Shown piece by piece: positions 4,428 to 29,916 of a stretch of 32,000 nt of DNA; positions within the stretch are counted from its first letter, which is position 1, and each line of letters opens with the position of its first letter. The translations under genes and the position numbers were made by a program. The stretch covers positions 60,001 to 92,000 of the forward strand of contig NZ_CP010341.1 of assembly GCF_000940845.1 (NCBI RefSeq). Reading direction: 5' to 3'. The notes under the pieces were generated by a model. It did no database searches and was not told the origin of the DNA. It saw nothing but the letters and a program-made list of their open reading frames with translations. The stretch comes from Propionibacterium freudenreichii subsp. freudenreichii (GTDB lineage Bacteria; Actinomycetota; Actinomycetes; Propionibacteriales; Propionibacteriaceae).

Positions 4428-4482
4428 GGATGCCTCCTGGATGCCGGACGCTGGTGCGTTGCCATGGCCACCTGCGGCCCGT

Positions 4483-5483: not shown

Positions 5484-5515
5484 GGGCGACGATGTCGCGC
5501 GACCGGAGGGTGGGG

Positions 5516-6262: not shown

Positions 6263-6684
6263 AAAGCACCATCTTCTTCGTGATCCTCACCGTGATCATG
6301 CTGTTCGTCGTGGGCAACCTGTTGCGCAGCCGCCGCATCCGCGAGCGCTATGCGGTGCTGTGGGTGCTCGTGGGGCTGTTCATGCTGGTGCTGGTGGCCT
6401 TCCCCGTGCTGCTCGACCGGTTGGCCCACCTGGTGGGCATCGCCGTGCCGTCGAACCTGCTGTTCATCCTGGTGATCGCCATGCTGCTGGGCATCACCCT
6501 GCAGTTGACCCTCGAGGTGTCGCGCGCCGAGGACCGCAGCCGCGTGCTCGCCGAGAACGTTGCCATCCTCAACCTCGAGATGCGCGAGGCCGGGCTCACC
6601 CACCTGCCGACGCATGGCGCGCCCGGCGACGAGATGAGCGACACCACCGACGATGGGCCCGAGGGTCCCGACGCGTCCCGGTAG
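6259..6684 (+). CDS. Small integral membrane protein, DUF2304-like partner of the preceding GT2
   Basis: The GTG at 6259 overlaps the GT2 stop (GTGA). 141 aa with 3-4 hydrophobic helices (IFFVILTVIMLFVVGNLL, YAVLWVLVGLFMLVLVAF, LLFILVIAMLLGITL) and then an acidic tail. The upstream part of the tracked ORF (6085-6258) is antisense-like junk. Confidence 0.8.
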   Translation: MKSTIFFVILTVIMLFVVGNLLRSRRIRERYAVLWVLVGLFMLVLVAFPVLLDRLAHLVGIAVPSNLLFILVIAMLLGITLQLTLEVSRAEDRSRVLAENVAILNLEMREAGLTHLPTHGAPGDEMSDTTDDGPEGPDASR

Positions 6685-6822
6685 CCATGCGGCCCGGTAG
6701 CCACGCGTCGCATCCGGCAAGTGGGCCGGCTCGTCCCCGTCCCCCCGGCGCCGGTCGATAGGCTGGCCACCTGCCCGCCGACCGTATGCGGCAGGGTCTT
6801 CCCGGAGAGGTTGCGACGAGCG

Positions 6823-7704: not shown

Positions 7705-7714
7705 ACCGATACCC

Positions 7715-10428: not shown

Positions 10429-11693
10429 TCCCCGTGGTGGGTGGCAGCCCCGGTGCCCACGTCGTAGCGGGCACGCAGCACCCGCAGGGCGGGCAGCACG
10501 GTGGCCGCCATGATCACCGCCTCGCTCAGCGCGAGGCCGGCGGCGATCCCGGCCGCGCTGTGGTGCAATCCGGCGAACACCATCGCGATGATTCCGAAGA
10601 GCGCGGCAACCGACGTTGCCAGCAGGACCGTCCTCTGTCGTCCGTTGGGCACCAACAGGTTGCGCAGGAACGGCGTTGAGGCCGAAATGAACAGGAACGC
10701 CAGCGCGTACCAGGACGTGAGTGCGAAGCCGGCGGCGACCTGCGGGCCGAACAGCACCTGGGTGGCCCACGGTCCGAGCAGCGCGATGCCCACTGCGCCC
10801 AGGAGGCCCAGGAGCAGGTGCAGGGCGATGGCCGCGTGGTGGCGCCTGCGCCCGGACGCACCCTCCACCTCGAGGGTCCAGCCCTGCAGGGCATTCCCCA
10901 GGGCGGTCACGGCGAACAGCGCATAGCGGTAGAGCTGGTCGGCAGAGGCGAAGCGGCTCGAATCGATGCTGAGCAACAGCGCCGTGGCGATGGGCACCGG
11001 GGCATAGGCGTAGGCAACCCCGACGAGGCTGGCCGACGCGATCGACGTCATCGATCGGATCGAGCGCCATGCGTCCCCGAGGCTCACGGGTGAGGAGGGG
11101 GCGGTGGTGATCACGCGTCGTGGGAACAGCCACAGGGCGACCAGGATTGCGATGATCAGGAGCACGGGGTAGGCGATCATCGACCGCGTCCACAACATGA
11201 TCGGCACCGAGACGATGGTGCCGATCACCCGCGGCAGGGTGTCGTAGAGGCCGAGTAGCTTGGGCCGGCCCACCCCGATGCAGAACCACTGGGGCGACAG
11301 GGCCCCCATTGTGAATGCGCACGCCACGAGTGCCGCGGGGAGTCGGACGGAGGCCGGCGCGAGCAGCAGCGTGACCACCACGGTGGCCGGCAGCACGAAG
11401 GCCAGCATGAGCAGGCGGCTGTAGACGCTCTCGGTGTACAGGCGGGAGCGTTCGGCCTCGGAGGCCTGGGCCACCATGGCGGGCCCCACATAGCTCCAAC
11501 CCCAGGTGGCCAGGCTCATGCCGAATGTGCCGATGGACATGGCCGCGACAACGCCCGACCAGCCGTCGCCCACGAAGCGCGCGATGATCGGCGTCGCCAC
11601 CAACGGAGTGACCAGCGACAGCAGCGGCCAGCCGGTGAAGCCGGCGAGCCGACGCACCACCTCGGTGGCGGCGCCCGCGTTGTCACGATTCAC
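10416..11693 (-). CDS. Polytopic membrane protein, MOP/Wzx-like oligosaccharide flippase (tentative)
   Basis: 425 aa with a GTG start. About 12 hydrophobic segments run across the whole length, with short loops and no soluble domain, which matches Wzx-type flippases in size and layout. Its 3' end overlaps the convergent two-domain GT gene by 13 nt (10416-10428). Confidence 0.55.
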   Translation of the reverse strand: MNRDNAGAATEVVRRLAGFTGWPLLSLVTPLVATPIIARFVGDGWSGVVAAMSIGTFGMSLATWGWSYVGPAMVAQASEAERSRLYTESVYSRLLMLAFVLPATVVVTLLLAPASVRLPAALVACAFTMGALSPQWFCIGVGRPKLLGLYDTLPRVIGTIVSVPIMLWTRSMIAYPVLLIIAILVALWLFPRRVITTAPSSPVSLGDAWRSIRSMTSIASASLVGVAYAYAPVPIATALLLSIDSSRFASADQLYRYALFAVTALGNALQGWTLEVEGASGRRRHHAAIALHLLLGLLGAVGIALLGPWATQVLFGPQVAAGFALTSWYALAFLFISASTPFLRNLLVPNGRQRTVLLATSVAALFGIIAMVFAGLHHSAAGIAAGLALSEAVIMAATVLPALRVLRARYDVGTGAATHHGDQGR

Positions 11694-11889
11694 TCAGTCA
11701 CTCTTTCGGCTCGGGACGCGCCGCAGGTGTGCCCGTGTGGTGGTCATCGGGCGCCAACATGGCACTCGGGACGCGAATCGTCGTCACGTGTGCAGCGCGT
11801 GCGTTGACAATATCAGCGCGCCAGGATGCGGCACGCGGGCGCCTTCGTGGCCGGTGGGACAGCCCACGAGGCTGCGGCTGCGTCCCCGG

Positions 11890-11961
11890 CAGGGTGCCCT
11901 GCCTCTCCCACAGGGTGCCCTACTTCTCCCAGAGGGTGCCCTATTTCTCCCACAGGGTGAT
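11890..11961 (-). repeat. 21-bp tandem repeat (about 3.4 units) reiterating the last codons plus stop of the GT-C gene
   Basis: Minus strand reads ATC ACC CTG TGG GAG AAA TAG (11961-11941, gene end) | GGC ACC CTC TGG GAG AAG TAG (11940-11920) | GGC ACC CTG TGG GAG AGG CAG (11919-11899) | GGC ACC CTG CCG (11898-11887). Confidence 0.9.
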
Positions 11962-13472
11962 GGTGTGCCCCTGCGGCACGCCGCTCTTCGCGTAGACGCT
12001 GTGGTAGCCGAGCTCGGCGAGTTGGGAACCGTACACGGCGCGCCGGGTGTGCCAGGAGGCAACCCAGATGCGCGGGGGAAGCCATTCCTGGGCGGCCAGG
12101 TTGAGCTCCGGCGGGTCGTGCGCCCAGGCGAAGTCCAGGGGTGGCTTGGTCGGCTGGGCCAGGTCGATGAGCGTCGAGAAGGCGCCCGGATCCACCGAGA
12201 CCGCGCCGCGATAGGAGAAGACCCAGTCCTGGATCGGGTCGATCAGGAAGCCATCCCCGGCCCGGGCGGATTGCCGCATGACCCTGGACATCAGGTTGTA
12301 ATCGGTCCCCGAAGCCTTCGCATAGGTACGCTGCTGGAACCCGAACAGGGTGAGGGAGCCCACCATCAGGAGGATGACCAGGCCCCGTATCCAGCGTCGC
12401 TGCGCATGGATCGCCAATTCTGCAAGGGCCATGGCGAAGAAAGGTGCCACCGGCGTCAGATAGCGGCCCTGCAGCACATTGGTCCACACCAGGGAGGCGA
12501 TCCACAGGATGCCCACCCCGGTGGCGACCGGGACCAGGGCAAACGCCAGCCGGCGTAGGTGCCGGCCGCGGGACTCGACGACGACTGCGATCAGGAGGAT
12601 GGCGGCAACCACCGCCATAGCTGCGGCAATTGCATCGGGCACCCTGTCCGATATCTCCGGCACCGGAGGGGTTCGTGACGCGGCCCAGGACTGCACCAGG
12701 GCTGTCTCGATGAGGGAATACTTCTCGCTGGCCAACCATCCGATCTGGCCCAGTTGGCGTGAGGTCGCCACGCCGAACGGCGCGACCAACGCGGCGCTGA
12801 CGATCCCGGCGGCGGCGAGCATCCATCGTCGCCTGCCCTTGGTGAAGAACCAGGCGGCAGCAACCAGGCCAGCCATGGGAAGCGCCGCATACAGGTGCAC
12901 CAGCATCGCGGCCGCAATGGCCAGCACAAGGCCCACCCAACGCAGCCACGAGGGGCGCCGGCGATAGACCACCACGAGCAACAGTGCGAGCGCCGCGAAC
13001 ATCGACGACATCGCATAGGGCCGTGCTTCGATGGCCATGAGCAGTGTGCGGGGGAGCAGTCCGTAGGCGGCCGCATAGGCGAGTTGCCCCCGTCGGCCGA
13101 CCAGTCTTCGTCCCACGCCCGCCATCGCCATCGTGCCACACCGGCAGCGATCACGCTGGGCAGCCGCAGCGTGAAGGGCGTGATGCCGACCAGGTCGACC
13201 CACCAGTGCACCACCTCGTAATAGGCGGCATGGACCATGTCGGACCCGGACGGCAGCGTCGGAATGCCCTGCCACATGCTGGCCATGTCCCGGCTTGAAT
13301 AACTCACGACGTGTGCCGTGGCGACCTCGTCCAGCCACGGCGATACGCGCCAGGCGCCAACCAGAGTGAGAAGAACCACGACCAGCCCCAGGACCGCGTC
13401 GCCCCGCACACTCTGCGGCACGAGACGCTGCACCACTCCGATTCTCGTGGGCGATGCTTCGTTCCGGGGCAT
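11941..13472 (-). pseudogene. GT-C (GT39/PMT_2/ArnT-like) membrane glycosyltransferase, about 509 aa if joined; reading frame broken near 13130-13145
   Basis: The N-terminal 112 aa in the frame of ORF 12591-13472 look genuine (WRVSPWLDEVATAH...HAAYYEVVHWWVDLVGITPFTLRLPSVIAAGV, including the loop-1 DE motif and the RLPS motif typical of GT39/ArnT-like enzymes). The rest continues in the frame of ORF 11941-13338 (TMAMAGVGRRLVGRRGQLAYAAAYGLLP...). The offset again fits a 1-nt deletion. Confidence 0.65.
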
Positions 13473-13555
13473 GACGACAAGACTAGTTGTCGCAGCGGTA
13501 TATCAGTGGGCGGCGCGCAAGCGCATCACTCGCTCATGCCTGGCCTCGAAATGAT

Positions 13556-13567
13556 TCTGGTACCAGA
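13556..13567. promoter_or_regulatory. Perfect 12-bp palindrome TCTGGTACCAGA in the low-GC gap upstream of the GT-C gene (candidate operator)
   Basis: The palindrome is read directly from the sequence. It is flanked by ATGATTC (13551-13557) and TTGATTC (13580-13586). It lies in the 154-bp gap between the rmlCD stop (13627) and the GT-C start (13472). Confidence 0.3.
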
Positions 13568-13626
13568 TTGTTGGGGATATTGATTCGGATCTACCGCGAC
13601 TGGCAAACAGCCGTTCATATTCCCAA

Positions 13627-15087
13627 TCAATCAGGGCGGTTCACTGTCGGCTGTTGTCCGGACCCGTCCCGGCGCAACTGCGCCACATAGGCGTCCAGGC
13701 GCTCCTCCATGGAGGGCGGACGGAAGCCGGTGGCCTCGATGCGGGTGAGGTCCAGCGTGCTGTCGGCGGGGCGCGGTGCGGCGTCCTTGCCGGCGAAGTA
13801 CTCCGCCGTGCTGATCGGTGACACATCCTGCGGGTCGTGGCCGCTCAGGGCGAAGACGCGCTTGGCCACCGCGGCCCAGCTCAGCGGGGTGCCCTCGTTG
13901 GACAGGTTGTAGGTGCCCCAGGCGGCGCCGTGGCGCAGCAGGTGGATGATGCCGGCGGCCAGGTCGGTGGTGAAGGTGAGGCGTCCCACCTGGTCGTCCA
14001 CCACCTTGGGGGCGATGCCGCGCCCGGCCAGGTCAACCATGGTGCGCACGAAGTTCTTGCCCTCGCCCACCACCCAGCTGGTGCGCACCAGGTAATGCCT
14101 GGGCGTGGCGGCCACGGCGGCGTCGCCGCCGGCCTTCGACTGCCCGTAGACGCCCAGGGGGCTCGGCATCTCGTCCTCGCGATGCGGTGCCCGGGTGCCG
14201 TCAAAGGTGTATTCCGACGAGATGTGCACCAGCGTGAGCCCGTGCTCGGTGGCAACCCGGGCGAGGTTTGCCGGCCCGGTGGCGTTCGCGGCCCATGCCC
14301 GCGGCCTGCCCTGGGCGGTCTCGGCACCATCGACGTCGGTCCAGGCCGCCGCATTCACGATGACGTCGACGGTGCTCCAGTCGTAGGCGTCCACACTGGC
14401 CCGGTCGGCGATGTTGAGCTTGTCGAGGTCGACGCCCACCGGGAGGAAGCCGGCATCGGGCAGCTGCGCCATGAGCGCGCGTCCCAGCTGGCCGTGGGCA
14501 CCGGTCACCAGCACCCTCGGCATCGCCGGGGGGAAGGGCGTCACCGCGTCGAGGCGCGGATGGGCGCGGTCCTTGTCCGACAGGATCGCGTCGTCCAGCG
14601 CAATGGGCCAGTCGATGGCCACGGTCTCATCGGCCAGGTTGAGGAAGGTGTACTTCGCCTCGGGCGACCAGTGCGCATTCACCAGGTAGGTGTAGGCGGT
14701 GTTCGGCTCCAGCGTCTGGTAGGCGTTGCCCACGCCCCGCGGCACGTAGACGGCCACGCCGGGATCGATCTCGCAGGTGAACACGGTGCCGAAGCTGGGA
14801 CCCTCGCGCAGGTCCACCCAGGCGCCGAAGACGCGGCCGGTGGCCACCGAGATGAACTTGTCCCAGGGCTCGGCATGGATGCCGCGGGTGACGCCCACCT
14901 CATCGTTGAACGAGATGTTGTTCTGCACCGGGCCGAAGTCGGGCAGACCCAGCGCGGTCATCTTGGCGCGCTGCCAGTTCTCCTTGAACCAGCCCCGGTT
15001 GTCGCCGTGCACGGTGAGGTCGAACACCAGGAAGCCCGGAATCGGGGTGGTGGTGGCGGCCAGCTGCTTCTCGTGGTCAAGCGCCAT
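13627..15087 (-). CDS. rmlCD: Bifunctional dTDP-4-dehydrorhamnose 3,5-epimerase / dTDP-4-dehydrorhamnose reductase (RmlC-RmlD fusion)
   Basis: 486 aa from ATG 15087 (MALDHEKQ...), 4 nt after the rmlB stop. The N-terminal half is an RmlC cupin (HGDNRGWFKENW, GIHAEPWDKF). The C-terminal half is RmlD (VLVTGAHGQLG Rossmann motif, NAAAWTDVDGAE, YGQSKAGGD). The tracked ORF extension to 15297 is junk that overlaps rmlB. Confidence 0.9.
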   Translation of the reverse strand: MALDHEKQLAATTTPIPGFLVFDLTVHGDNRGWFKENWQRAKMTALGLPDFGPVQNNISFNDEVGVTRGIHAEPWDKFISVATGRVFGAWVDLREGPSFGTVFTCEIDPGVAVYVPRGVGNAYQTLEPNTAYTYLVNAHWSPEAKYTFLNLADETVAIDWPIALDDAILSDKDRAHPRLDAVTPFPPAMPRVLVTGAHGQLGRALMAQLPDAGFLPVGVDLDKLNIADRASVDAYDWSTVDVIVNAAAWTDVDGAETAQGRPRAWAANATGPANLARVATEHGLTLVHISSEYTFDGTRAPHREDEMPSPLGVYGQSKAGGDAAVAATPRHYLVRTSWVVGEGKNFVRTMVDLAGRGIAPKVVDDQVGRLTFTTDLAAGIIHLLRHGAAWGTYNLSNEGTPLSWAAVAKRVFALSGHDPQDVSPISTAEYFAGKDAAPRPADSTLDLTRIEATGFRPPSMEERLDAYVAQLRRDGSGQQPTVNRPD

Positions 15088-15091
15088 GGTG

Positions 15092-16099
<1,008 letters not shown>

Positions 16100-16220: not shown

Positions 16221-19200
16221 TCAGACGTCGTACTGATAGAGGTTGTAGCGATCCATGATCGAGATGATCTTGTTCGCATAGGTGGGATCGGTGGCATATC
16301 CGGCAGCCGCGATCGCCCGCACGAAGTCCCGATCATTGGTGGTCAGGAAGGCCGGGTAATAGCGGTTGGCCGAGTTGCTCGGATCGCCCAGGCTCAGGAA
16401 GAAGCCATGGTCGAGGAAGGAATCACCCGGGCTGTTGTAGCTGCGGAAGCCCGCCTGAATGGTGACATAACCGCCATTCACCCACTCGCTGGTCGAGTAC
16501 GAGGTGCACCCCGAGACGAAGGGGCTGCCGTAGGCAGGGCACTTGATGCCGAAGTAGTTGTTGTCCACTGCGGTCAAGCTGCTCTGGCCCCAGCCACTCT
16601 CGATGATCGACTGGGCAATCGACACGGCAGCCGGAACCCGATATCGGCGCTGCTCTTCCTGGGCGAACCCAGCAACCCATCGGATATAGCCGGCCTCGTC
16701 ACCCGCGGCTGGCTTGGAGCCGCCCGTATTGACCACATTGACCACGGTGCCACCGGAGTTCTTCCAGGCGATAGTGCCATTCTGGAAGGTCTGGATGGTG
16801 CCGTCGTCGGTGGGTGCCTCATCGCTGGTGGGGAAGCCTAGTGCGCCATCGGACGCACCCCAGGCGAAGTAGGTTGCTCCGACGGCGCCGCGCACCGCAT
16901 AGGCGTAGTTGTTCGGTCGCCAGTAGATGCGTCCGCCCTCGAAATCTTGGGAGACGCCGCCATTGATAGCGGCCTCGCCGGCACGGGGGAACTGAAGCAG
17001 GCCTGAGGATGCGCCAAGCTTGAGATACTCGTCAAGCATCGCGCCACGCACAGTGGCGTTCCCAAGGCCGTCCTTCCAGTAGATGCGCCCGCCTTGGAAC
17101 ACCTGGTAGCTCCCTCCGTCGGCGCTGATCTCGCTGCTTGTCGGCAGTCCGAGTAGTCCGGTTGACGCGCCTTGGTTGATGTAGGAGTCGCCGATGCCGC
17201 CGCGCACCATATGGCCACCAGTTGGGCCGCTCCAGTAGATGCGGCCGCCCTGGAACTGCTGGTACCAACCGTTGGGCAGGGTGATCTCGTTGCTCGTGGG
17301 CAATCCGAGTAGGCCGTAGGCTGAGTTGCCCATTGCTGTGAAGGTGTCGCCGATGCCTCCCTTGACCACATTGACCACGGTGCCACCGGAGTTCTTCCAG
17401 GCGATAGTGCCATTCTGGAAGCTCTGGATGGTGCCGTCAGCGGTTGGATTCTCATTGCTGGTGGCAAAGCCCAGCGCGCCGCTCGAACCACCCCATGCGT
17501 CATAGGTGGCTCCGATGGCGCCGCGCACCAGGTAGGCATAGCTGTTGGGATGCCAGTAGAGGCGTCCGCCCTCGAAGTCCTGTAGGGCGCCGCCAGCGAT
17601 GGCGACCTCTCCTCCCCGCGGGAAGGCGAGCAGGCCCGACGACGCATTCATGCTGAGGTAGGCGTCAAGCATCGCGCCGCGCACGGTGCCGCTTCCCAGT
17701 CCGTCCTTCCAGTAGATGCGACCACCCTGGAAGACCTGGTAACTCCCCCCGTCCGCACTGATCTCGCTGCTGGTAGGCAGGCCGAGCAGACCGGTTGAGG
17801 CACCCTGGTTGACATAGGAGTCCCCGATGCCGCCCCGCACCATATGACCACCGGTCGGACCGAACCAGTAGATGCGGCCGCCCTGGAACTGCTGGTACCA
17901 ACCGGCAGGCAGGGAGACCTCGTCGCCAGTGGGCAGGCCGAGCAGCCCATAGGCCGAGTCGCCCATTGCCGCGAAGGTGTCGCCGATTCCGCCCTTGATG
18001 GCGTGTCCGCCGGTGGCGCCGCTCCAATAGATGCGGCCGTTCTGGAACTGCTGCATCCATGCACCATTGCCGAGGCTGAGTTCACCACTGACGGGGGCGC
18101 CGAGGGTAGACAAGGCGGATTCCCCGAGCGCCGCGAAGGTGTCGCCAATGCCGCCCTTGACGAGAATGCCGGCAGTGGGATAGCTCCAGAAAATGCTTCC
18201 GTTCTGGAAGTGCTGGAACCAGCCATTGGAAAGAACCGTCTCGTCGCCGGTGGGCAGGCCGAGCAGCCCATAGGCCGAGTCGCCCATTGCCGCGAAGGTG
18301 TCGCCGATTCCGCCCTTGATGGCGTGTCCGCCGGTGGCGCCGCTCCAATAGATGCGGCCGTTCTGGAACTGCTGCATCCATGCACCATTGCCGAGATCAA
18401 CTTCGTCGCCGGTGGGCATGCCCATGGCACTTGGCGCGCTTGCCATGGCTGCGAAGGTGTCGCCGATGCCGTTATGCACGATGCGTGCACCGCTCGCCTG
18501 GCTCCAATAGATGAGTCCGCGCTGGAACTGCTGGTACTGGGAGCCATCGGCCAAAGTAGTTACCTGCCCAGAGGGCAGACCAAGACTTGCTGGCCCATCA
18601 GTGCCGAGGCTGGCATAGATCGCACCGATATTGCCATGGACAACGACTCCAGCGGTGGCATAACTCCAGAAGATGCTGCCCTTCTCAAACTGCTGTGCCC
18701 ATCCATTCGCAACCGCAGCCTCGTCGCTTGTGGGGAGTCCCAGATCAGCGAACGCGGAGGAACCCAGGGACGTGTAGGTGTCGTTGATCCCACCGTGGAC
18801 GATATGGGCTCCAGTGGTTGGCGACCAGAAGATGCGGCCGCTCTGGAAGCTCTGCATTACGCCACTTCGAACGGAGACTGGGTCAGCCGTGGGCAACCCG
18901 AGATAGCTGTATGCCGAATCCCCAAGTGCCGCATAGGCCGCTGCAATATCGCCGTTGGTGGCGTGTCCGCCAGTGGCTCCGCTCCAGAAGATGCGGCCGT
19001 TCTGGAACTGCTGCACCCACATGCCGTTGCCGAGATCCCTCTCGTCGCCCGTGGGCAGTCCGATATCGGTGAGCGCAGAATCACCCATCGCAAAGTAGAC
19101 ATCGCCGATGCCGCCCTTGATGGCATGCGCGCCGGTGGCCTGCGACCAATAGATGCGTCCGTTGGCGAACTGCTGCCAGGCGCCGCCCCCGCTGAGGGCA

Positions 19201-20255
19201 GTTTCTGACGAGGTGGCCGCACCAAGCACTCCGTTGGCACCGCCCAGCTGGTTGTACAGATCTCCGATCGCACCCGAAGTCGCGATCTGCGCAGATGGCG
19301 CCACCGCATCAGCGATGGCGCTGGTCGGGGCCTGGGTCGTCGGGGCCTGGGCGGTCGGTGACTGGGTTGTTGAGGGGGCTGCCGCCGAGGGGGTCGCTGG
19401 GCTTGCACTCGACGAGCTGGAGCTGTTCGCGGGGGTTGGCGTTGCCGGCGTCGACGCGCTCGTGGCCGCGGTGGTGGGCTGCGCGGTGCTCTTGGCCGAT
19501 GCCGTGTTGGCGGCTGATGAGTTGCTACTGGTCTTGGTGGTCGCATCCGCTGCGGAGTTGGCGCTCGTGGCCGTGGTTGCTGTCGACGTGGAAGCGGTTG
19601 CAGACGGCGCGCTCGACGCCGTCGCGGTTGCGGACGTGGTCTTGCCCAGGGCGGCGTACTTTGCCGCCACATCGCTGGTGACGACCTTTCCGCCGTCATT
19701 GGTCCAGTAGATGCCAGCGTTCTGGAACTGCTGGTACCAACCGTCAGGCAGCTTCACCTCATCGTAGGTGGGCAGACCGAGCTTGGTCAGCGCGGCATCG
19801 CCCAACGCGACATAGGTATCGCCGATGCCGCCCTTGATGGCATGCGCGCCGGTGGCCTGCGACCAGTAGATGCGTCCATGCTGGAACTGCTGCCAGACGC
19901 CACCACCGGTAAGGGGGGTCTCCGATGCAGTGGCCAGGCCGAGCTCGCCGTCGGCGCCATCCATGGCCGTGTAGAGATCGCCGATGGCACCCGAGACGGT
20001 GATGGTCTTTGGCGTGGTGGACGTCTCACTTGTGGCTAGGACAGGTGTCGCAGAGCTGCTGGAGCTGGTGGTGCCCGACGACGCAGAGGTGCTGGCCGAC
20101 GTTGCCGCCGGACTGGCAGGGGTCTCAGAGACGGTGTCGGCAGAGGCATGTGAGGGGGCTAGGGCGAGGGACAGGCCTACCGCTGGGATGGCTGCCAGAA
20201 TGAAACCGGCAGTGCGCGTATAGGGAATGCTCTTCTTAGAGGGCCCTGCTAGCAC
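16221..20255 (-). CDS. Secreted cell-wall hydrolase: signal peptide, S/T-rich linkers, about 18 LGFP repeats, C-terminal GH73 (mannosyl-glycoprotein endo-beta-N-acetylglucosaminidase) domain
   Basis: GTG at 20255 with GGAGGA 7 nt upstream. Signal peptide ...FILAAIPAVGLSLALAPSHASA/DT. There are 2 + 16 repeats of about 53 aa with the pattern G.IG..Y...G...G.LG.PT..E....GG..Q.F..GRIYWS..TG.H. An S/T/A/P low-complexity linker spans 19290-19643. The C-terminus carries VSIAQSIIESGWGQSSL...NNYFGIK...GFRSY (GH73 signature, about 16224-16700). The tracked ORF extension 20256-20669 overlaps glf and is rejected. Confidence 0.9.
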   Translation of the reverse strand: MLAGPSKKSIPYTRTAGFILAAIPAVGLSLALAPSHASADTVSETPASPAATSASTSASSGTTSSSSSATPVLATSETSTTPKTITVSGAIGDLYTAMDGADGELGLATASETPLTGGGVWQQFQHGRIYWSQATGAHAIKGGIGDTYVALGDAALTKLGLPTYDEVKLPDGWYQQFQNAGIYWTNDGGKVVTSDVAAKYAALGKTTSATATASSAPSATASTSTATTATSANSAADATTKTSSNSSAANTASAKSTAQPTTAATSASTPATPTPANSSSSSSASPATPSAAAPSTTQSPTAQAPTTQAPTSAIADAVAPSAQIATSGAIGDLYNQLGGANGVLGAATSSETALSGGGAWQQFANGRIYWSQATGAHAIKGGIGDVYFAMGDSALTDIGLPTGDERDLGNGMWVQQFQNGRIFWSGATGGHATNGDIAAAYAALGDSAYSYLGLPTADPVSVRSGVMQSFQSGRIFWSPTTGAHIVHGGINDTYTSLGSSAFADLGLPTSDEAAVANGWAQQFEKGSIFWSYATAGVVVHGNIGAIYASLGTDGPASLGLPSGQVTTLADGSQYQQFQRGLIYWSQASGARIVHNGIGDTFAAMASAPSAMGMPTGDEVDLGNGAWMQQFQNGRIYWSGATGGHAIKGGIGDTFAAMGDSAYGLLGLPTGDETVLSNGWFQHFQNGSIFWSYPTAGILVKGGIGDTFAALGESALSTLGAPVSGELSLGNGAWMQQFQNGRIYWSGATGGHAIKGGIGDTFAAMGDSAYGLLGLPTGDEVSLPAGWYQQFQGGRIYWFGPTGGHMVRGGIGDSYVNQGASTGLLGLPTSSEISADGGSYQVFQGGRIYWKDGLGSGTVRGAMLDAYLSMNASSGLLAFPRGGEVAIAGGALQDFEGGRLYWHPNSYAYLVRGAIGATYDAWGGSSGALGFATSNENPTADGTIQSFQNGTIAWKNSGGTVVNVVKGGIGDTFTAMGNSAYGLLGLPTSNEITLPNGWYQQFQGGRIYWSGPTGGHMVRGGIGDSYINQGASTGLLGLPTSSEISADGGSYQVFQGGRIYWKDGLGNATVRGAMLDEYLKLGASSGLLQFPRAGEAAINGGVSQDFEGGRIYWRPNNYAYAVRGAVGATYFAWGASDGALGFPTSDEAPTDDGTIQTFQNGTIAWKNSGGTVVNVVNTGGSKPAAGDEAGYIRWVAGFAQEEQRRYRVPAAVSIAQSIIESGWGQSSLTAVDNNYFGIKCPAYGSPFVSGCTSYSTSEWVNGGYVTIQAGFRSYNSPGDSFLDHGFFLSLGDPSNSANRYYPAFLTTNDRDFVRAIAAAGYATDPTYANKIISIMDRYNLYQYDV
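16731..17996 (-). repeat. Intragenic tandem duplication, period 633 bp (211 codons = 4 LGFP repeats)
   Basis: GACCACATTGACCACGGTGCCACCGGAGTTCTTCCAGGCGATAGTGCCATTCTGGAAG occurs at 16731 and again at 17364 (offset 633). The two encoded 211-aa modules (KGGIGDTF...GGTVVNVV) are roughly 80-85% identical by eye. Confidence 0.85.
17919..18395 (-). repeat. Two copies of a 156-bp segment (155/156 identical) at an offset of 321 bp (107 codons = 2 LGFP repeats)
   Basis: 17919-18074 and 18240-18395 were compared base by base. The single mismatch is A at 17928 versus G at 18249. Both encode ...DE.SLGNGAWMQQFQNGRIYWSGATGGHAIKGGIGDTFAAMGDSAYGLLGLPTGDE. Confidence 0.9.
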
Positions 20256-23744
<3,489 letters not shown>

Positions 23745-23748
23745 GCCT

Positions 23749-24633
23749 GTGAGTTCGTCTGATCTGGCGTCGCTGCCGTTGCATGCCCCCGGGCACTCCA
23801 ACGGCCTGCTCGACGTGCCGAAGTGGCACTTCCTCCTCAACCTGTTGGTGAAGAAGGAACTGCGCGTCCGCTACCGCGGCTCGGTGCTTGGCATGCTGTG
23901 GAGCTACGTCAAGCCGGCCGTGCAGCTGCTCGTCTACTACATGGCGATGGGTAAGTTCCTGCGCCTGTCGGCGTCGATGACCAACTACGTCATCTACCTG
24001 TTCGCCGGCATGGTGATGATCAACTTCTTCAATGAGGTGATGGGCAACACCACCCGCTCGATCGTCAACAATGCGCCACTGGTGGGCAAGATCTACCTGC
24101 CCCGCGAATTGTTCCCGGTGTCGAGCCTGTGGGTGGCGTTCGTGCACTTCGTGCCCCAGCTGGCCGTGTTGCTGCTGGGGGCGTTGATCGTCGGCTGGCG
24201 GCCCACGATGCTCAATGTGATGGCCGGACTGCTGTCGATCGCCATGGTCGCCATCTTCGCGCTGGGCCTGGGCCTGGCCTTTGCCGCGTGGAATGTGATG
24301 TTCCGCGACGCCGAGAACCTGGTTGACCTGATCGCCATGGTGGCCCTGTGGGTGTCGCCGGTGTTCTACAACTGGAGCATGGTGCAGTCGGTGGTGCCCG
24401 GCTGGCTGTGGAACATCTACCAGTGCAATCCGCTGGCGATGTCGGTGGAGCTGTCGCACTATGCGTTCTGGGTGCCCACCCGGGGCGTCACCGCCACCCG
24501 GTCGATGGCCGAGCTGATGCCACCGCACTGGGTGATGTGGTCGGGTGTGGCGCTGCTCATCTCGCTGATCATCCTGGTGCTGGGCCAGATGGTCTTCCGT
24601 GCCAACGAGGGCAAGTTTGCCCAGGAGCTGTGA
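23749..24633 (+). CDS. wzm: ABC-2 type polysaccharide export permease (Wzm-like)
   Basis: ELRVRYRGSVLGMLWSYVKPAVQLL entry motif and six hydrophobic helices. The GTG at 23749 has GAGGAA about 10 nt upstream. The longer TTG start at 23698 would overlap glfT2 by 47 nt. Confidence 0.85.
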   Translation: MSSSDLASLPLHAPGHSNGLLDVPKWHFLLNLLVKKELRVRYRGSVLGMLWSYVKPAVQLLVYYMAMGKFLRLSASMTNYVIYLFAGMVMINFFNEVMGNTTRSIVNNAPLVGKIYLPRELFPVSSLWVAFVHFVPQLAVLLLGALIVGWRPTMLNVMAGLLSIAMVAIFALGLGLAFAAWNVMFRDAENLVDLIAMVALWVSPVFYNWSMVQSVVPGWLWNIYQCNPLAMSVELSHYAFWVPTRGVTATRSMAELMPPHWVMWSGVALLISLIILVLGQMVFRANEGKFAQEL

Positions 24634-25403
24634 TGAGCGAGCCTGTTGAATCCACGGTGATGGTCGATCCCAACCTGGTGGTCGCGCGGCTGCGCGATGT
24701 GGACAAGCGCTTCACCCTGCACCACACGCACTCCATCAAGGAGTACTTGGTGTGGACGATGAAGGGCCGCAAGGGCGAGCTCTCGGAGAGCTTCCTGGCC
24801 CTCGACGACGTCAACCTCGACATCCACCAGGGCGAGTCGGTGGCGCTGCTGGGCTTCAACGGCTCGGGAAAGTCCACCTCACTGAAGCTGCTGTCGGGCG
24901 TCATGATGCCCGACAAGGGCGAGGTGGCCATTCGTGGCCGCATCGCCGGCCTGATCGAGGTGGGCGCCGGCTTCCATCCCGACCTCACCGGGCGTGAGAA
25001 CGTCTACCTCAACGGCGCGATCCTCGGCATGAGCGAGTCGGAGATCGACGAGAAGTTCCAGCGCATCGTCGACTTCAGCGAGATCGAGAAGTTCATCGAC
25101 ACCGAGGTGAAGTTCTACTCCTCGGGCATGTTCCTGCGCCTGGCCTTCGCGGTTGCCGCACACTCCGAGCCCGACATCTTCCTCATCGACGAGATCCTCA
25201 CGGTGGGCGACGAGCCGTTCCAGCGCAAGTGCATCGCCAAGATCAAGGAACTCAAGGCCGGCGGGCAGACACTTGTGGTGGTCAGCCACGACCTCGACAT
25301 GGTGCGCGGCATCTGCGATCGCGGCGTGGTGCTGGCGCAGGGCCGGGTGACCTTCGACGGCGACGTCGACGACGCGGTGGAGTTCCTGCGCAGCACCGAG
25401 TGA
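24633..25403 (+). CDS. wzt: Polysaccharide export ABC transporter ATP-binding protein (Wzt-like, NBD only)
   Basis: 256 aa from ATG 24633 (TGATG overlap with wzm). Walker A GFNGSGKST, signature YSSGMFLRLAF, Walker B DIFLIDE, H-loop VVSHD. There is no C-terminal extension. Confidence 0.9.
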   Translation: MSEPVESTVMVDPNLVVARLRDVDKRFTLHHTHSIKEYLVWTMKGRKGELSESFLALDDVNLDIHQGESVALLGFNGSGKSTSLKLLSGVMMPDKGEVAIRGRIAGLIEVGAGFHPDLTGRENVYLNGAILGMSESEIDEKFQRIVDFSEIEKFIDTEVKFYSSGMFLRLAFAVAAHSEPDIFLIDEILTVGDEPFQRKCIAKIKELKAGGQTLVVVSHDLDMVRGICDRGVVLAQGRVTFDGDVDDAVEFLRSTE

Positions 25404-25515: not shown

Positions 25516-27924
25516 CTACAGGCGGCCGGTGATGCGTCCCGCCGCGCGGCTCAGATAGCCGCGGGCCACTTGGTACTGGCGCTTGGCGAAGTTGAACCCG
25601 CCCCCGGCGCGCACCGCATGGTCGGTGGCGCGTAGCTGCACCTGCAGGTCGGCGATGAGCTGCTGCTGGGTGCCCAGGGCGTCCACCACCTCCTGGATCT
25701 TCTGCTCCAGGTGGTCGGTCTCGCGCTCCAGTTCCTTGCTGATGAACAGGGGCAGGCCCAGGCCGTTCTTGTCGGTCCATTCCTTGAGGGCCTTGTTGCG
25801 CAGCAACAGGTCGTACTCGGTGTGGTCGGAGCTGTTGGTGTACATCGAGTTGCCGGCCGTCCCCTCGGCGGGCTGCAGCGGACGATGGTGCCAGTTGGCC
25901 AGGGCGTGGTCGATGAAGCCCACCTCGCCGGCCTGTAGCAGGCGCAGGTGGAAGACGTAGTCGCCGATCACCGGATAGTCCTCGGCGTACAGCCCCACCC
26001 GGTCGTGCACGGCACGCCGGTAGACCAGGCAGATCGGCACGATGCGGTTGAGCTTCACGAAGTCGAGCAGGCGCATCGCATGCAGATCGGGCCACGACGG
26101 GAAGCGCTCATAGGTCACCCAGTCGGGGCCCACCTGCCGCTCCATCACGATCGTGGTGCGGGTGGCGACGGCCTCCTCGTCGGGATGGGCACGCAGGTGC
26201 GTGAGCGTCTCGAGCAGGAACCGCGGCTGCCAGCTGTCGTCGTCGTCGTGGATGTTGACGAATTCACTGTGCGAGTTGGCCAGCCCCACGTTGGAGGCGG
26301 CCTCCATGCCGTGCGACACGGGATTGTTCACCACGGTGAGTCGATCGCCGAGCTCGCTGCGGTAGCGGTCGAGTACGGACGCCACCTGGTCGGTGTCGCC
26401 GGCGTCGTTGACCACCACCAGCTGCCAGTCAGCCCAGGCCTGCTCCAGCACGTCCTGGACGGCGCGGTCGAGGAAGCCGGGGCGGTTCTGCGTGCGCATG
26501 ATCAACGCCACCGTGCGGTCGGCGCCGGCAGCCGGTGCATAGCGGAAGGGGGCAATCGCCGCGGCGACGTCGCCGGTGAAGCGGTCGACCTGGTCGAGCG
26601 CGGCGGGTCCGCCGAGCGGGGCGGCGCTGTCGGGGGTGGCAGCGTCGTGTGTGGCATCGCGGGGGGCCTCGGCCGGGTTGCTCGCGTCGGCGCGATCACT
26701 GTCATCGGCGGTGTCACTGGCCTCGTCGAGCACGGCAACCACCTGGTCCCACCAGCGGCTGGCGGCGTCCAGGCGCTCGGGGCGCACGGCCAGCGCGGCG
26801 CTGCGTTCGGCGTCGGCGCCGGCCACCAGGGCATCGAGCACCGCGTCGGCGACATCGGCACGCAGGGCACCGGTCGCCGGGTCCCACAGGGCCGCGAAGG
26901 GCACCGACGCGTTGCTGCGGCCCCAGTTCGCCAGGGCGCCATCGACGCGGCTGCGGGCATAGCGGCCGAGGGTGATCGGCAGCACCGGGGTGCCGGACAG
27001 CAGTCCGAAGACCACCGGATGGAAGCGGGTGGTGAGCGCCCATCGCGAGGCGGCCAGCCGGGTGGTGGCGTCAACCGCCTGTTCGATGGGCAGCAGCGTG
27101 GCCTGATGGCTCATCTGCGCGGCCACCAGCTTGTGGATGCGCACATCGCTGCGCGGACGGTCGGGATCGGCCATGTGCGGCACGAACTCCACCTCGGCGC
27201 CGGTGCGCTGCGCCAGGCCGTCGATCAGGGCAGCCATGATGGACACATAGTCGTGTTCGGCGAAGGGTTCGGCGTTGTCGCCGAGCGTGACGCTGATCCG
27301 GTTGGCCTTGGGATGGTCCCAGTCGGCGTCCAGCAGCACGGCGTCGTCGAGGGTCTGGAAGATCGCCGGATGCTCGGGGCACAGTTGCGTGGCCAGCCGA
27401 TAGCTGTCGGCGTCGCGCACGCCCACCAGCTGGCACAGCTCGAGCAGTTCTTTGAGTGCGGCGCGGTCGCTGAGCAGCAGGAAGGGCCCCAGGCTCTGCC
27501 CGCTGAGCACCACCGGGATGTCGAGGAAGGACGCCACCAGGGCGGTGGCCAGGCGCTCATAGACCAGCCAGCCGAAGTTGGAGTTGAGGCTGCCGCCGCC
27601 ACCGATCACCAGGGCGTCGACGCCGCGCAGCTGGTTCATGATCTTGAACAGCTTGTCCTTGGCAGGCAGGGCCACGTGGTTTCCCGACAGCACCTTGCGG
27701 ATCTCGGCCAGGTAGCGGTCGCGCTCGTCCAGCGGCCAGGGGAAGGTGAGTGCCGGGATCGACTCGGCGTGTGGCTGCCCGCCGGGTCCGTACTTCTCCT
27801 GACGCGAGATCATCACCACCTCGTGTCCGCGCTGCCGCAGCTGTGCCGCGCTGGCGATTCCGATGGCCTCGTCGCCGACGTGATAAACCGCCTGGTCAAC
27901 CTCGCACAGAAGCGCTACCCGCAT
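25516..27924 (-). CDS. Tri-domain protein: polysaccharide pyruvyltransferase-like domain + GT2 domain + C-terminal coiled coil
   Basis: 802 aa, with AAGGAG 6 nt before the ATG at 27924. aa 1-400: VYHVGDEAIG, DALVIGGGGSL, TTRFHPVVFGLLSGTPVLPI (CsaB/WcaK-like). aa ~470-690: ALIMRTQNRP, VVVNDAGD, NIHDDDDSW (GT2). aa ~728-768: ELERETDHLEQKIQEVVDALGTQQQLIADLQVQL (heptad-like). Confidence 0.85.
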   Translation of the reverse strand: MRVALLCEVDQAVYHVGDEAIGIASAAQLRQRGHEVVMISRQEKYGPGGQPHAESIPALTFPWPLDERDRYLAEIRKVLSGNHVALPAKDKLFKIMNQLRGVDALVIGGGGSLNSNFGWLVYERLATALVASFLDIPVVLSGQSLGPFLLLSDRAALKELLELCQLVGVRDADSYRLATQLCPEHPAIFQTLDDAVLLDADWDHPKANRISVTLGDNAEPFAEHDYVSIMAALIDGLAQRTGAEVEFVPHMADPDRPRSDVRIHKLVAAQMSHQATLLPIEQAVDATTRLAASRWALTTRFHPVVFGLLSGTPVLPITLGRYARSRVDGALANWGRSNASVPFAALWDPATGALRADVADAVLDALVAGADAERSAALAVRPERLDAASRWWDQVVAVLDEASDTADDSDRADASNPAEAPRDATHDAATPDSAAPLGGPAALDQVDRFTGDVAAAIAPFRYAPAAGADRTVALIMRTQNRPGFLDRAVQDVLEQAWADWQLVVVNDAGDTDQVASVLDRYRSELGDRLTVVNNPVSHGMEAASNVGLANSHSEFVNIHDDDDSWQPRFLLETLTHLRAHPDEEAVATRTTIVMERQVGPDWVTYERFPSWPDLHAMRLLDFVKLNRIVPICLVYRRAVHDRVGLYAEDYPVIGDYVFHLRLLQAGEVGFIDHALANWHHRPLQPAEGTAGNSMYTNSSDHTEYDLLLRNKALKEWTDKNGLGLPLFISKELERETDHLEQKIQEVVDALGTQQQLIADLQVQLRATDHAVRAGGGFNFAKRQYQVARGYLSRAAGRITGRL

Positions 27925-28099
27925 ACGAAGCTCCTTGATACCGGGACGTGTGGCCGGCCGGTACCCTCGCCACCACAGATCTTTTGGACGTTATCATGCG
28001 CGGCCGCACGATCCGGGCGCGCGAAACCGGCCCCCAGCGCGCCCACGGGCGCTGCGGCGAACAGGCGTCGCGCCTGCTCGCGCGACGGGCCGGCAGCTC

Positions 28100-28957
28100 T
28101 CAACGCCTGCCCACCAGCCTCATCATCGTGCGGTATGCACGCTGCCGCAGGCCGGTGGGGACCAGGCGGTACAACCCACGCACCGCGACATTGCGCGCCC
28201 CCACCAGGTGGCTGACGAATCCGGAGCGCACGAAGGCTCGTTGCAGCGCCAGCTCGCTGCCCAGCATCTCGACGCCGCCGCGCCGCTTGTAGGCACCCGA
28301 TCCCACCCGGTAGAGCACCAGCGGATCGGGCAGGTTCGTCACCCGCGCGCCGCACTGCAGCATGCGGGCGAACAGCCAGTAGTCCTCCATCTTGGACAGA
28401 TGCTGGTAGCCACCCGCACGGGCGACGGCACTCTTGCGGTACACGACGGTGGGGTGGTTGAAGGGGTCGCGGAAGTGGGCCACCCGGCGGATCTCGTCGC
28501 CGTCCTGGGGCAGCCGACGGACCATGCCCGGATGGTGCTCGTCGTCGTTGAATTCCTGGATGGCCGAGCCCACCAGGTCGTAGCCGTCGGGCTCGCCCGG
28601 CGCGTCGCCGGCGATCACCGGGAGTTGGCGTGAGAACCGGTGTGGCACCGAGATGTCGTCGGCGTCGGCGCGAGCCACGATCTCGTAGCGGCATGCCTCC
28701 AGGCCCAGCTCGAGGGCGGCGGCCAGGCCCCGGTTCCGGTTGATGCGCACCAGCGTCACGGGGATGTCCCCCACGGCACTGCCGTCGGACGCGTGGGCGA
28801 TCACCTCTTCCAACTCGGGCGGCACCGGCCCGTCGCGCACGATCACGATCTCATTGGGACGCAGGATCTGGTCGGTGCTGATCGACGCCAGTGCGCGGGC
28901 GAAGAACTCCGGCTCGTCGCCGGCGTAGACCGGCAGCAGCACGCTGAACGCCGTCAT
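28100..28957 (-). CDS. GT2 family glycosyltransferase
   Basis: 285 aa. FSVLLPVYAGDEPEFFARALASI, IVIVRDGPV and ARADADDISVPHRF match the GT-A N-terminal pattern plus acidic motif. ATGA overlap with the upstream gene at 28954-28957. Confidence 0.8.
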   Translation of the reverse strand: MTAFSVLLPVYAGDEPEFFARALASISTDQILRPNEIVIVRDGPVPPELEEVIAHASDGSAVGDIPVTLVRINRNRGLAAALELGLEACRYEIVARADADDISVPHRFSRQLPVIAGDAPGEPDGYDLVGSAIQEFNDDEHHPGMVRRLPQDGDEIRRVAHFRDPFNHPTVVYRKSAVARAGGYQHLSKMEDYWLFARMLQCGARVTNLPDPLVLYRVGSGAYKRRGGVEMLGSELALQRAFVRSGFVSHLVGARNVAVRGLYRLVPTGLRQRAYRTMMRLVGRR

Positions 28958-29916
28958 GCGGGCTCCTTCGCCAGGGCCTCGATGTCCGACTCGGCGGGGG
29001 TGCCGGCAAGCACCCGGCCATTGCTGCGTGGCCCGGCGCGCAGTCCGTCGCGCAGGCCGGTGCGCAGGCCACGCGACAGCACCCGGCGGTTGCCCGAGGT
29101 GCGCAGCGTGTGCGCCCAGCGCCGCAGCGTCGACGCGCCGTAGATCAGCTTCTCCCAGCGCGTCAGGGCGCGGGAGCGGGTGAACAGCCAGACCTTGTTG
29201 CGCACCTCCTGGTAGAAGCGCGGCCCCGGATCCGCCCCCGAATCGCCGAACGCCCGGGTGAGGTGGCGCACGCGGCTGGCCGGCACGTAGAGCCCCTCAT
29301 GGTGGCGCAGCAGGCGCGCGGTGTACTCGAAGTCGTCGTTCCACAGGAAGTAGTCGGCCATCGGCAGGCCGCATTCGCGCACTGCCTCGGCGTTGATCAG
29401 GATGGACACGAACGACGCCGAGCGGATCGGGCGGCATCCCAGCCGTGCGGCGTCGGCCTTCTCGCGGGGCGAGGCGTCCAGTCGGGTGCGGGGGGTGTTC
29501 ATGGGGTGCTCGCGGCCGTCGGACCAGTCGGCGCGGCTGGCCAGCACGGCAAGCTCGCGGGGATAGAGCCGGGCCGTGTCGAGAAGGGCCTGCAGGGCGG
29601 TGCTGGTGGGCACGGTGTCGTCGTCCATGATCCAGATGCCGTCGGCCCGCTGACGCGCCATGGCGGCGGCGATGCCGGTGGTGAAGCCGCCTGCCCCACC
29701 GGTATTGGTGGGCATGGTGATCACCTCGGTGACCACCGGGTGATCGCGGGCGATGTCGCCGGAACCATCGGTGGACGCATTGTCCACGACGATGACGGCA
29801 TCGGCCGGCCGGGTCTGGCCGGCCAGGCCATCAAGGCACTGGGTGAGCAGCTCACGACGGTTCCAGGCCACGACCACCGCAACGATGCGGGGCGGGTTAC
29901 CGGGGGTGGGCTTCAT
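28954..29916 (-). CDS. glfT1: GlfT1-like GT2 galactofuranosyltransferase (tentative)
   Basis: 320 aa. IVAVVVAWNRRELL, VIVVDNASTDGS, TNTGGAGGFTTGI, IWIMDDDTVP and RFYQEVRNKVWL parallel the motifs I recall for M. tuberculosis GlfT1 (Rv3782): IVVDNDGCGDS, NLGGAGGFALGM, VWLADDDGHA, RFFTYRNRGYVL. Confidence 0.7.
   Translation of the reverse strand: MKPTPGNPPRIVAVVVAWNRRELLTQCLDGLAGQTRPADAVIVVDNASTDGSGDIARDHPVVTEVITMPTNTGGAGGFTTGIAAAMARQRADGIWIMDDDTVPTSTALQALLDTARLYPRELAVLASRADWSDGREHPMNTPRTRLDASPREKADAARLGCRPIRSASFVSILINAEAVRECGLPMADYFLWNDDFEYTARLLRHHEGLYVPASRVRHLTRAFGDSGADPGPRFYQEVRNKVWLFTRSRALTRWEKLIYGASTLRRWAHTLRTSGNRRVLSRGLRTGLRDGLRAGPRSNGRVLAGTPAESDIEALAKEPA

Follow-up and report, generated by a model that had tools for sequence, protein, structure and literature searches.

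A fused pyruvyltransferase and GT2-coiled-coil enzyme as a candidate writer of the SLH-protein anchor in Propionibacterium freudenreichii

Proteins with S-layer homology (SLH) domains are abundant in Actinomycetota, and to our knowledge it is only for Firmicutes that the wall ligand of such proteins and the way it is made have been established; there, CsaB and TagA make pyruvylated N-acetylmannosamine (ManNAc). This raises the question of which enzyme makes the anchor in Propionibacterium freudenreichii, a cheese starter and probiotic in which the SLH proteins SlpB and SlpE act in adhesion and against inflammation. The DNA analysed here is a stretch of 32,000 nucleotides from P. freudenreichii subsp. 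freudenreichii (NZ_CP010341.1, positions 60,001 to 92,000), referred to as the window, and positions are counted from its first letter. On its minus strand, at 25516..27924, lies a gene for a protein of 802 residues plus stop, in which a pyruvyltransferase (PvT) domain, a linker, a GT2 glycosyltransferase domain, a candidate coiled coil and a basic tail follow one another. On balance, we lean towards the view that this gene makes a pyruvylated sugar of the wall galactan that anchors the SLH proteins of P. freudenreichii, with the GT2 domain acting first and the PvT domain second on the lipid-linked galactan.

The open reading frame is real: GC content at codon positions 1, 2 and 3 is 0.73, 0.45 and 0.89, as in a true high-GC gene; a Shine-Dalgarno sequence, AAGGAG, stands 6 nt 5' of the ATG (27931..27936, minus strand); and the homologs begin at the identical MRVALLC start. 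At 99% identity, it matches a P. freudenreichii entry named 'glycosyltransferase / polysaccharide pyruvyl transferase family protein'; the family is annotated yet uncharacterised. AlphaFold2 models the whole protein with two well-packed catalytic domains (pLDDT 87.9, pTM 0.85). A sequence-only reading of this DNA had named a pyruvyltransferase-like N-terminus, an acidic Ala/Pro linker, a GT2 domain with an HDDDD motif and a coiled-coil-like C-terminus, and the searches described below bear out this architecture.

The pyruvyltransferase domain occupies aa 1-407 (26704..27924, minus strand). Its core, aa 16-318, matches positions 2-277 of the 280 in the PF04230 profile with 111 bits, against a gathering cutoff of 25.3 (E 1.3e-31). 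Among NCBIfam models CsaB (TIGR03609) scores best, with 78.5 bits where the equivalog cutoff is 213.1 and with aa 88-317 aligned only; as it stays under that cutoff, the domain classifies as CsaB-like and not as a CsaB ortholog. An alignment of 35 full-length homologs is the source of all invariant-residue calls made here. Y14, H15, G17, R170, D171, S174, R300 and H302 are invariant in it and D18 is kept in at least 90%, and the conserved phosphoenolpyruvate (PEP)/acceptor motifs N/HxGD, RxxxS/T and RxH are all present. The same residues also match the NxGD, RxxxS and H motifs of WbbZ (PMC10629545). Mapped by motif and spacing and not by superposition, Y14, R170, R300-x-H302 and R326 correspond to Y14, R148, R306-x-H308 and K328 of P. 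alvei CsaB (PMC10435577). The domain is modelled at pLDDT 90-99; Foldseek returned generic GT-B-like fold matches only, and sequence searches of the PDB, both by profile and by single sequence (E values up to 10), gave no solved relative. The linker that follows (aa 408-470; 26515..26703, minus strand) is acidic, rich in Ala, Pro and Asp and disordered, with aa 415-436 left unmodelled by AlphaFold2 (pLDDT <50), and it varies in length and sequence among the aligned homologs.

The GT2 domain, of GT-A fold, spans aa 471-722 (25759..26514, minus strand) and matches PF00535 over aa 475-642 with 66 bits against a cutoff of 23.3 (E 4.3e-18). Its HDDDD motif (aa 559-563; 26236..26250, minus strand), a DxD-type metal and nucleotide-sugar site, is invariant together with W565 (HDDDD-x-W, residues H559-D560-D561-D562-D563) in 35 of 35 homologs. 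Profile searches of the PDB and Foldseek match the domain to 6p61, SpsA, AvpGT (9jma), WrtF and TarS/TarP, which are single-addition GT-A enzymes, and also to the GT-A modules of chondroitin and heparosan synthases, with target-normalised TM-scores of up to 0.86 against GT-A structures. From sequence and model, the domain thus resembles single-addition GT-A enzymes and not a polymerase. The top PDB sequence match, 9jma, was not used to choose a donor sugar, as one table calls it a PglI-type glucosyltransferase and the entry itself reads 'AvpGT'.

How the two modules are arranged elsewhere suggests that they work on the same glycan. One genome per species was scanned, which gave 77 loci, and their arrangements were read from tblastn and open-reading-frame checks. 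PvT and GT2 are fused in this order at 26 loci (Propionibacterium-like metagenome-assembled genomes (MAGs), Brachybacterium, Kocuria, Helcobacillus). They are separate genes on one strand in the same order at 17 loci (many Arthrobacter, Herbiconiux, Boudabousia) and in reverse order at nine (Rothia, Sinomonas), and they are adjacent on opposite strands at six (Brooklawnia, Nigerium). The GT2-coiled-coil protein stands without a PvT at 16 loci, and a PvT stands by itself at three, two of them at contig ends. Such a Rosetta-stone pattern of fused, split and divergent pairs argues that PvT and GT2-coiled-coil act on one substrate, and we regard sugar-then-pyruvate chemistry on a single glycan as highly probable.

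The gene neighbourhoods point to what the product is for. With the SLH triplets of the Brachybacterium huguangmaarense neighbours as queries, each fetched locus was searched within 10 kb. SLH-coding regions occur in 36 of the 61 loci with a PvT and in none of the 16 with GT2-coiled-coil only (Fisher p = 8e-6); when the loci are collapsed to genus-level groups, the figures are 10 of 17 and 0 of 13 (p = 0.001). Pfam verifies the SLH domains in nine of ten sampled neighbours, which were drawn from several genera and include amidases, a deacetylase and an S8 protease. Adjacency is immediate in Brachybacterium, in loci L030 and L081 and in Propioniciclava. In B. huguangmaarense the fusion, which lies outside any glycan cluster, starts 4 nt past an amidase-SLH gene, and another two SLH genes come after it; at L030 an amidase-SLH gene comes directly after the fusion; and in Propioniciclava a stand-alone PvT is flanked by three SLH genes. 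A Propionibacterium-related MAG carries, on one strand, an SLH protein, further along a DUF6541 protein, and then PvT-GT2, glf, glfT2, wzm, wzt and amidase-SLH. The SLH repeats beside the fusion retain the Arg of the TRAE-type motif (xRDAM).

In P. freudenreichii itself, SlpA, SlpB, SlpE, SlpF and InlA are displayed through SLH domains (PMC5462946, PMC5390290, PMC5902329); they are held non-covalently and can be extracted with guanidine (PMC5462946, PMC5390290), and they are encoded outside the window (PMC5390290). The gene is present in intact form in strain CB129, which displays these proteins. The earlier suggestion that the enzyme creates a docking epitope for SLH proteins is the best-supported function, considering that SLH genes cluster with PvT in at least ten genus-level groups and that P. 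freudenreichii displays SLH-anchored proteins, and we judge it likely that the product is the SLH ligand. No wall ligand, csaB-type gene or pyruvyltransferase for the P. freudenreichii SLH proteins was reported in the literature searched, and searches on actinobacterial SLH ligands and on pyruvylated galactofuranans returned nothing specific; a PvT link to SLH anchoring in Actinomycetota thus appears to be unreported in that literature.

Several points weigh against this reading. No SLH gene lies in the 32-kb window, so that the SLH link in P. freudenreichii itself is indirect. No SLH gene was found within 10 kb at 25 of the 61 PvT loci, including all those of Kocuria, and the association test makes no more than a rough correction for phylogeny. 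The known SLH ligand, pyruvylated ManNAc, is made with TagA, a GT26 enzyme, and no ManNAc genes were seen near the gene. No chemical evidence was found for pyruvate in the wall polysaccharide of P. freudenreichii, and a second pyruvyltransferase elsewhere in the genome may be responsible for the anchor. As to placement, sequence by itself does not separate a terminal from a side-chain position; side-chain GT-A enzymes of the TarS/TarP type also carry C-terminal oligomerisation domains, and the Wzt of the window, the ABC-transporter ATPase next to the gene, has no cap-reading module.

The closest known parallel is CsaB with TagA. The PF04230 domain is common to both systems, CsaB is the top NCBIfam match, and the PEP-site residues are kept by motif and spacing; genomic coupling to SLH-domain genes is found in both at the level of the family. 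In the CsaB/TagA pathway, a glycosyltransferase supplies the sugar first and pyruvylation then takes place on the lipid-linked intermediate (PMC6030368), and the same order would hold for the P. freudenreichii enzyme. The differences are that its PvT falls far under the equivalog cutoff of 213 bits; that its glycosyltransferase partner is joined to it, as a GT2 carrying a candidate coiled coil, whereas the partner of CsaB is the separate GT26 enzyme TagA; and that the host is an actinobacterium, with glf/glfT2 and Wzm/Wzt as the polymer context.

We infer the acceptor, the donor sugar, the reaction order and the ligand role as follows. A membrane-associated, probably oligomeric and bifunctional enzyme would put a pyruvylated sugar on a lipid-linked cell-wall galactofuranan. 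To judge from the neighbouring genes, Glf and the GlfT1-like and GlfT2-like enzymes would assemble this galactofuranose (Galf) polymer on the cytoplasmic side of the membrane, with a polyprenyl as carrier. The GT2 domain, a predicted inverting GT-A enzyme with the HDDDD site, would add one beta-linked sugar, most likely at the non-reducing end, and the CsaB-like domain would then use PEP to turn the added sugar into a pyruvate ketal. Wzm/Wzt would export the glycan, and attachment to peptidoglycan would follow. Outside the cell, the pyruvylated unit would serve as a non-covalent docking ligand for SlpA, SlpB, SlpE, SlpF and InlA, as the gene neighbourhoods of relatives and the CsaB/SLH paradigm suggest. 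The heptad helix and the basic tail may keep the catalytic modules near the membrane, and capping of the tip might also halt galactan extension.

Is the modification at the tip of the chain or along it? SLH domains are reported to bind the terminal pyruvylated residue (PMC8942822). In Klebsiella O1b, a terminal pyruvate is added by WbbZ in an ABC-transporter pathway, to a Galf-containing galactan exported by a transporter without a carbohydrate-binding module (PMC10629545). These two precedents, together with the coiled-coil terminators and the Wzt_C-bearing neighbour in Actinomyces oris discussed below, favour the terminal position, to which we give a slight preference. The Klebsiella system also overtakes the remark in the sequence-only reading that it was aware of no characterised terminator with a pyruvate ketal, since WbbZ caps just such a galactan. 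The likeness of the P. freudenreichii locus to WbbY/WbbZ of Klebsiella pneumoniae O1b lies in the ABC-transporter pathway, the Galf-containing galactan, a Wzt without carbohydrate-binding module and adjacent glycosyltransferase and PvT genes (PMC10629545). It does not extend to the enzymes themselves: WbbZ belongs to the Pvg1p clade and the P. freudenreichii PvT is CsaB-like, WbbY is a dual-glycosyltransferase polymerase and the present enzyme has a single GT2, WbbY and WbbZ are encoded by separate divergent genes, and their product is a Gram-negative O antigen without SLH connection.

A side-chain role would have the GT2 add branch sugars and the PvT pyruvylate them, giving an anionic polymer that serves charge, cation binding, or phage and immune interaction and not specifically SLH proteins. 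The resemblance of the GT2 to the side-chain and single-addition enzymes TarS and TarP speaks for it, as do the pairs in Kocuria and at other loci that have no SLH gene nearby, and pyruvylated wall glycopolymers without known protein-binding role exist in Actinobacteria (PMC6801904). It would, however, leave unexplained both the strong and repeated adjacency of SLH genes and the coiled-coil and tail architecture that is common to terminators, and we think it improbable.

This architecture is formed by the C-terminus. A heptad-like long helix, a candidate coiled coil, covers aa 723-773 (25606..25758, minus strand) and is modelled by AlphaFold2 as a single 51-residue helix with a pLDDT of about 48-80. 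The heptad signal is modest in this protein (score 0.725, against 0.55 +/- 0.09 for shuffled sequences, 14 of which, out of 300, score at least as high) and recurs in the family, where the heptad z exceeds 2 in 52 of 67 homologs. The 35-homolog alignment shows a conserved G[LIV]GLP motif that is always followed by a charged heptad-like segment of variable length and an Arg-rich end; tails of homologs measure 53-107 aa, with a 7-residue indel relative to P0003. The last helix (aa 777-802, net charge +6; 25519..25596, minus strand; aa 777-798 in the model) is basic, and family-wide the last 25 aa hold on average 7.8 K+R against 1.5 D+E. This tail is presumed to contact the membrane or a partner and to form the membrane-proximal end. 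A description of it as an amphipathic membrane helix was dropped, with a hydrophobic moment of 0.45 vs 0.40 +/- 0.12 in shuffles. Stand-alone GT2 homologs in Actinomyces, Geodermatophilus and Snodgrassella keep HDDDD, the heptad segment and the basic tail, indicating that the coiled coil belongs to the GT2 module and not to the fusion.

The coiled coil had been proposed to act as a ruler between a capping activity and a polymerase. As a spacer between such modules it does not hold up: the two domains are spaced by the disordered linker, the GT2 does not resemble a polymerase, and the candidate polymerase, the GlfT2-like neighbour, is a separate protein. The proposed capping role itself is plausible, because the catalytic modules lie distal to the coiled coil and basic tail as in WbdD and ORF7-O4 and because of the Wzt_C in Actinomyces oris, and it is weakened by the lack of a cap-binding module in the Wzt here. 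The terminators WbdD (E. coli O9a; K. pneumoniae O3 and O5), WbbB (O12) and ORF7-O4 (GT137) likewise carry their capping modules on one end of a long helix and have the C-terminus close to the membrane, as is presumed here for the basic tail; they too are encoded in a wzm/wzt locus, and in O9a and O4 the polymerase is a separate protein too (PMC11231755, PMC3482155). They differ in that their caps are methyl/phosphate or Kdo, where sugar plus pyruvate is predicted here, that the present helix is much shorter, and that the Wzt beside it has no cap-reading module.

A terminator of the WbdD/WbbB type would have the GT2 and the pyruvate cap end GlfT2-type polymerisation, with the coiled coil as a ruler that sets galactan length and with SLH docking secondary or absent. 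The succession of catalytic modules, long helix and basic tail in a wzm/wzt locus fits this, and an extended coiled coil with a capping module at its distal end is the hallmark of terminators (PMC11231755). WbbZ shortens WbbY products and terminates WbbY polymerisation in vitro (PMC10629545), and the spread of coiled-coil and tail lengths among homologs, with the 7-residue step, is what a ruler might show. The helix of about 51 residues, or roughly 7 nm, is nonetheless short and its heptad signal modest; the pair is not beside an ABC transporter or polymerase in Brachybacterium, Kocuria or Arthrobacter; and Wzt_C (PF14524) similarity was found neither in the window Wzt nor in that of any Propionibacterium-type or other fetched locus except Actinomyces oris. 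Polymerases of the GlfT2 type, moreover, are considered to set the length of their products themselves. A pyruvate cap does not set chain length in Klebsiella O1, the single such system that has been characterised (PMC11231755). We consider this explanation unlikely, and hold the same low expectation for the coiled coil as a ruler taken by itself.

The exception, Actinomyces oris, deserves attention. At L087 (10001-12377) a stand-alone GT2-coiled-coil gene converges on that of a 405-aa Wzt with PF14524 Wzt_C, in an rml/RgpF rhamnan-type cluster, and this protein is a candidate sugar-adding chain terminator of a Gram-positive ABC-transporter pathway. No fusion of GT2-coiled-coil to other capping chemistries (methyltransferase, kinase) occurs among the 120 best stand-alone homologs. 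A bolder idea, which we put forward as a conjecture with the odds well against it, is that a single polypeptide does two jobs, ending the chain of an actinobacterial galactofuranan and making the signal that anchors the S-layer. GT2-coiled-coil proteins would then be an unrecognised family of sugar-adding terminators with a short WbdD-like ruler and a Wzt_C partner in Actinomyces, to which a CsaB-like domain was recruited in P. freudenreichii, Brachybacterium and others.

The genes around the fusion point to a probable acceptor. The gene converges on wzt (24633..25403, plus strand; PF00005) across a gap of 112 bp, as the sequence-only reading had said, between the wzt stop at 25403 and its own stop codon at 25516-25518; no terminator-like hairpin, intrinsic terminator or sigma-70-like promoter was found in this gap. 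Wzt has 257 aa as an open reading frame (256 aa in the CB129 annotation), and its top NCBIfam matches are teichoic-acid and galactan export ATPases, with positions 18-239 of the 244 in the galactan-export Wzt model covered. Upstream of it on the plus strand are wzm (23698..24633), an ABC-2 permease of 294-311 aa with uncertain start codon that matches PF01061 and, weakly, the NCBIfam galactan_ABC_perm; a GlfT2-like galactofuranosyltransferase (21732..23744) with all three GlfT2 domains (PF17994, GT2 and PF19320), the candidate polymerase; and glf (20548..21735), for UDP-galactopyranose mutase (PF03275, E 3.6e-83). On the minus strand, a GT2 glycosyltransferase gene, GT2a (28100..28957; PF00535), lies directly upstream of the fusion and is syntenic in all P. 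freudenreichii and related loci, and next to it is a GlfT1-like GT2 (28954..29916; PF00535; NCBIfam GlfT1 at 82 bits against an equivalog cutoff of 330), the candidate galactan primer enzyme. Further left in the window are rmlA, rmlB, an rmlC-rmlD fusion, more GT2 genes, a DUF6541 membrane protein and a GT-C-like protein. From this gene content, the window appears to be one extensive locus for wall polysaccharide, built around a galactan core of mycobacterial type.

In the mycobacterial and corynebacterial galactan pathway (Glf, GlfT1, GlfT2 and Wzm/Wzt, or Rv3783/Rv3781), we know of no pyruvyltransferase or GT2-coiled-coil component. The neighbours here include Glf, a three-domain GlfT2-like protein, a GlfT1-like GT2 and a galactan-type Wzm/Wzt; the NCBIfam scores in the window are, however, all under the equivalog cutoffs. 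By tblastn with the window proteins, the adjacency to glf-glfT2-wzm-wzt is limited to Propionibacterium-like, Boudabousia and Mobiluncus loci and is not family-wide; the same type of wzm/wzt neighbourhood is found at L023, L029, L030, L081 and L086 and not in Brachybacterium, Kocuria or Arthrobacter.

A different glycan could be the substrate, namely the rhamnose-containing polymer of 2337-16090 or a glycolipid, with the adjacency to wzt incidental. The second set of GT2 genes in the window with rmlA-D, the DUF6541 protein and the GT-C-like membrane protein would allow for this, as would the Brachybacterium fusion outside any glycan cluster. It is hard to reconcile with the conservation of the GlfT1-like/GT2a genes upstream and wzt-wzm-glfT2-glf downstream in Propionibacterium, related MAGs and Boudabousia, and with a relative that has no PvT domain and still keeps the GT2-coiled-coil in the syntenic slot: in the uncultured Propionibacterium L023, a 359-aa GT2-coiled-coil protein without PvT sits between GT2a and wzt. 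We regard another glycan as very improbable, and the galactan remains our preferred acceptor.

Several other features of these loci are recorded here. At L023, a 460-aa polytopic membrane protein (11011-12393, minus strand) with no counterpart in the window is encoded between the GT2-coiled-coil gene and wzt. The rmlC-rmlD fusion is a single 556-aa open reading frame (13627-15297, minus strand) that joins RmlC, the dTDP-4-dehydrorhamnose 3,5-epimerase, to RmlD, the reductase, and is annotated as a fusion in other strains. The regions 2337-6262 and 11941-13338 encode the polytopic DUF6541 membrane protein, a GtrB-like small GT2 (5492-6262) and the GT-C-like, mannosyltransferase-related membrane protein, which together resemble a polyprenyl-phosphate-sugar 'three-component' extracytoplasmic decoration system; DUF6541 and the small GT2 recur beside the fusion at L004/L081, L016 and L030. 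Divergent from glf, a 1482-aa open reading frame (16221-20669, minus strand) has 18 LGFP repeats, with a glucosaminidase domain at the C-terminus. The product is most likely LspA, a guanidine-extractable surface protein of ~115 kDa with a glucosaminidase domain (PMC5390290), and its length varies, with 818 aa in CB129 and 1103 aa at L086. Relatives hold an amidase-SLH gene in the equivalent slot, which suggests that the LGFP repeats may bind the same wall glycan.

The gene also varies sharply within the species. L079 (P. freudenreichii GCA_044990515.1) matches the window at 100% between 31855 and about 28656, and DNA identity then drops to 83-86% in the 3' half of the upstream GT2 gene, 61-70% in the pyruvyltransferase domain, about 50% in the linker, 74-80% in the GT2 domain and 54-61% in the coiled coil. 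The pattern reads as an allelic replacement with a recombination breakpoint just upstream of the gene, and the incoming allele is similar to the one at L086, a locus of another Propionibacterium species. The P. freudenreichii protein clusters fall into at least three allele classes, at 99%, 90% and 59% identity (34, 12 and 27 member sequences), and some strains have split or truncated versions (P0204, 498 aa, with P0208, 311 aa; P0209, 473 aa). Such diversity and replacement are expected of a gene that writes a surface epitope. A sharp replacement within the species is typical of antigenic surface loci, and so would also suit the side-chain role.

In CB129, the delta-slpB chromosome CP030279.1, an Ion Torrent based assembly (PMC6107788), contains two copies of the locus about 50 kb apart, L084 (99121-121517) and L082 (150524-163360). 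In L082, ~1.07 kb of the PvT domain is deleted, glfT2 is split and a fragment of an ISL3 transposase is present; L084 is intact and encodes 798 aa. That CB129 lacks the PvT domain, which would have spoken against the SLH reading, was therefore rejected, considering that L084 is on the same chromosome and that the wild-type CB129 draft (L083) also has the gene; the degenerate copy may have arisen in assembly or may be a true duplication that has decayed.

For the biology of P. freudenreichii, the gene is a concrete candidate for the synthesis of the SLH anchor, tied to a mycobacterial-type Galf polymer exported by Wzm/Wzt, and its split and divergent alleles are natural variants in which the display of SLH proteins can be compared. 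If one polypeptide should prove to be both terminator and anchor writer, the recombinational swapping of this gene from strain to strain, seen as a drop in identity from 100% to about 60% where the gene begins to differ, would change the tip chemistry or chain length, and hence the surface proteins that a probiotic strain displays. For the family, the module of PvT and GT2-coiled-coil, fused or split, could serve as a predictor of SLH-ligand synthesis throughout Actinomycetota. Should the GT2-coiled-coil proteins turn out to be a terminator family, the coiled-coil terminator principle would extend from Gram-negative O antigens to the wall glycans of Gram-positive bacteria.

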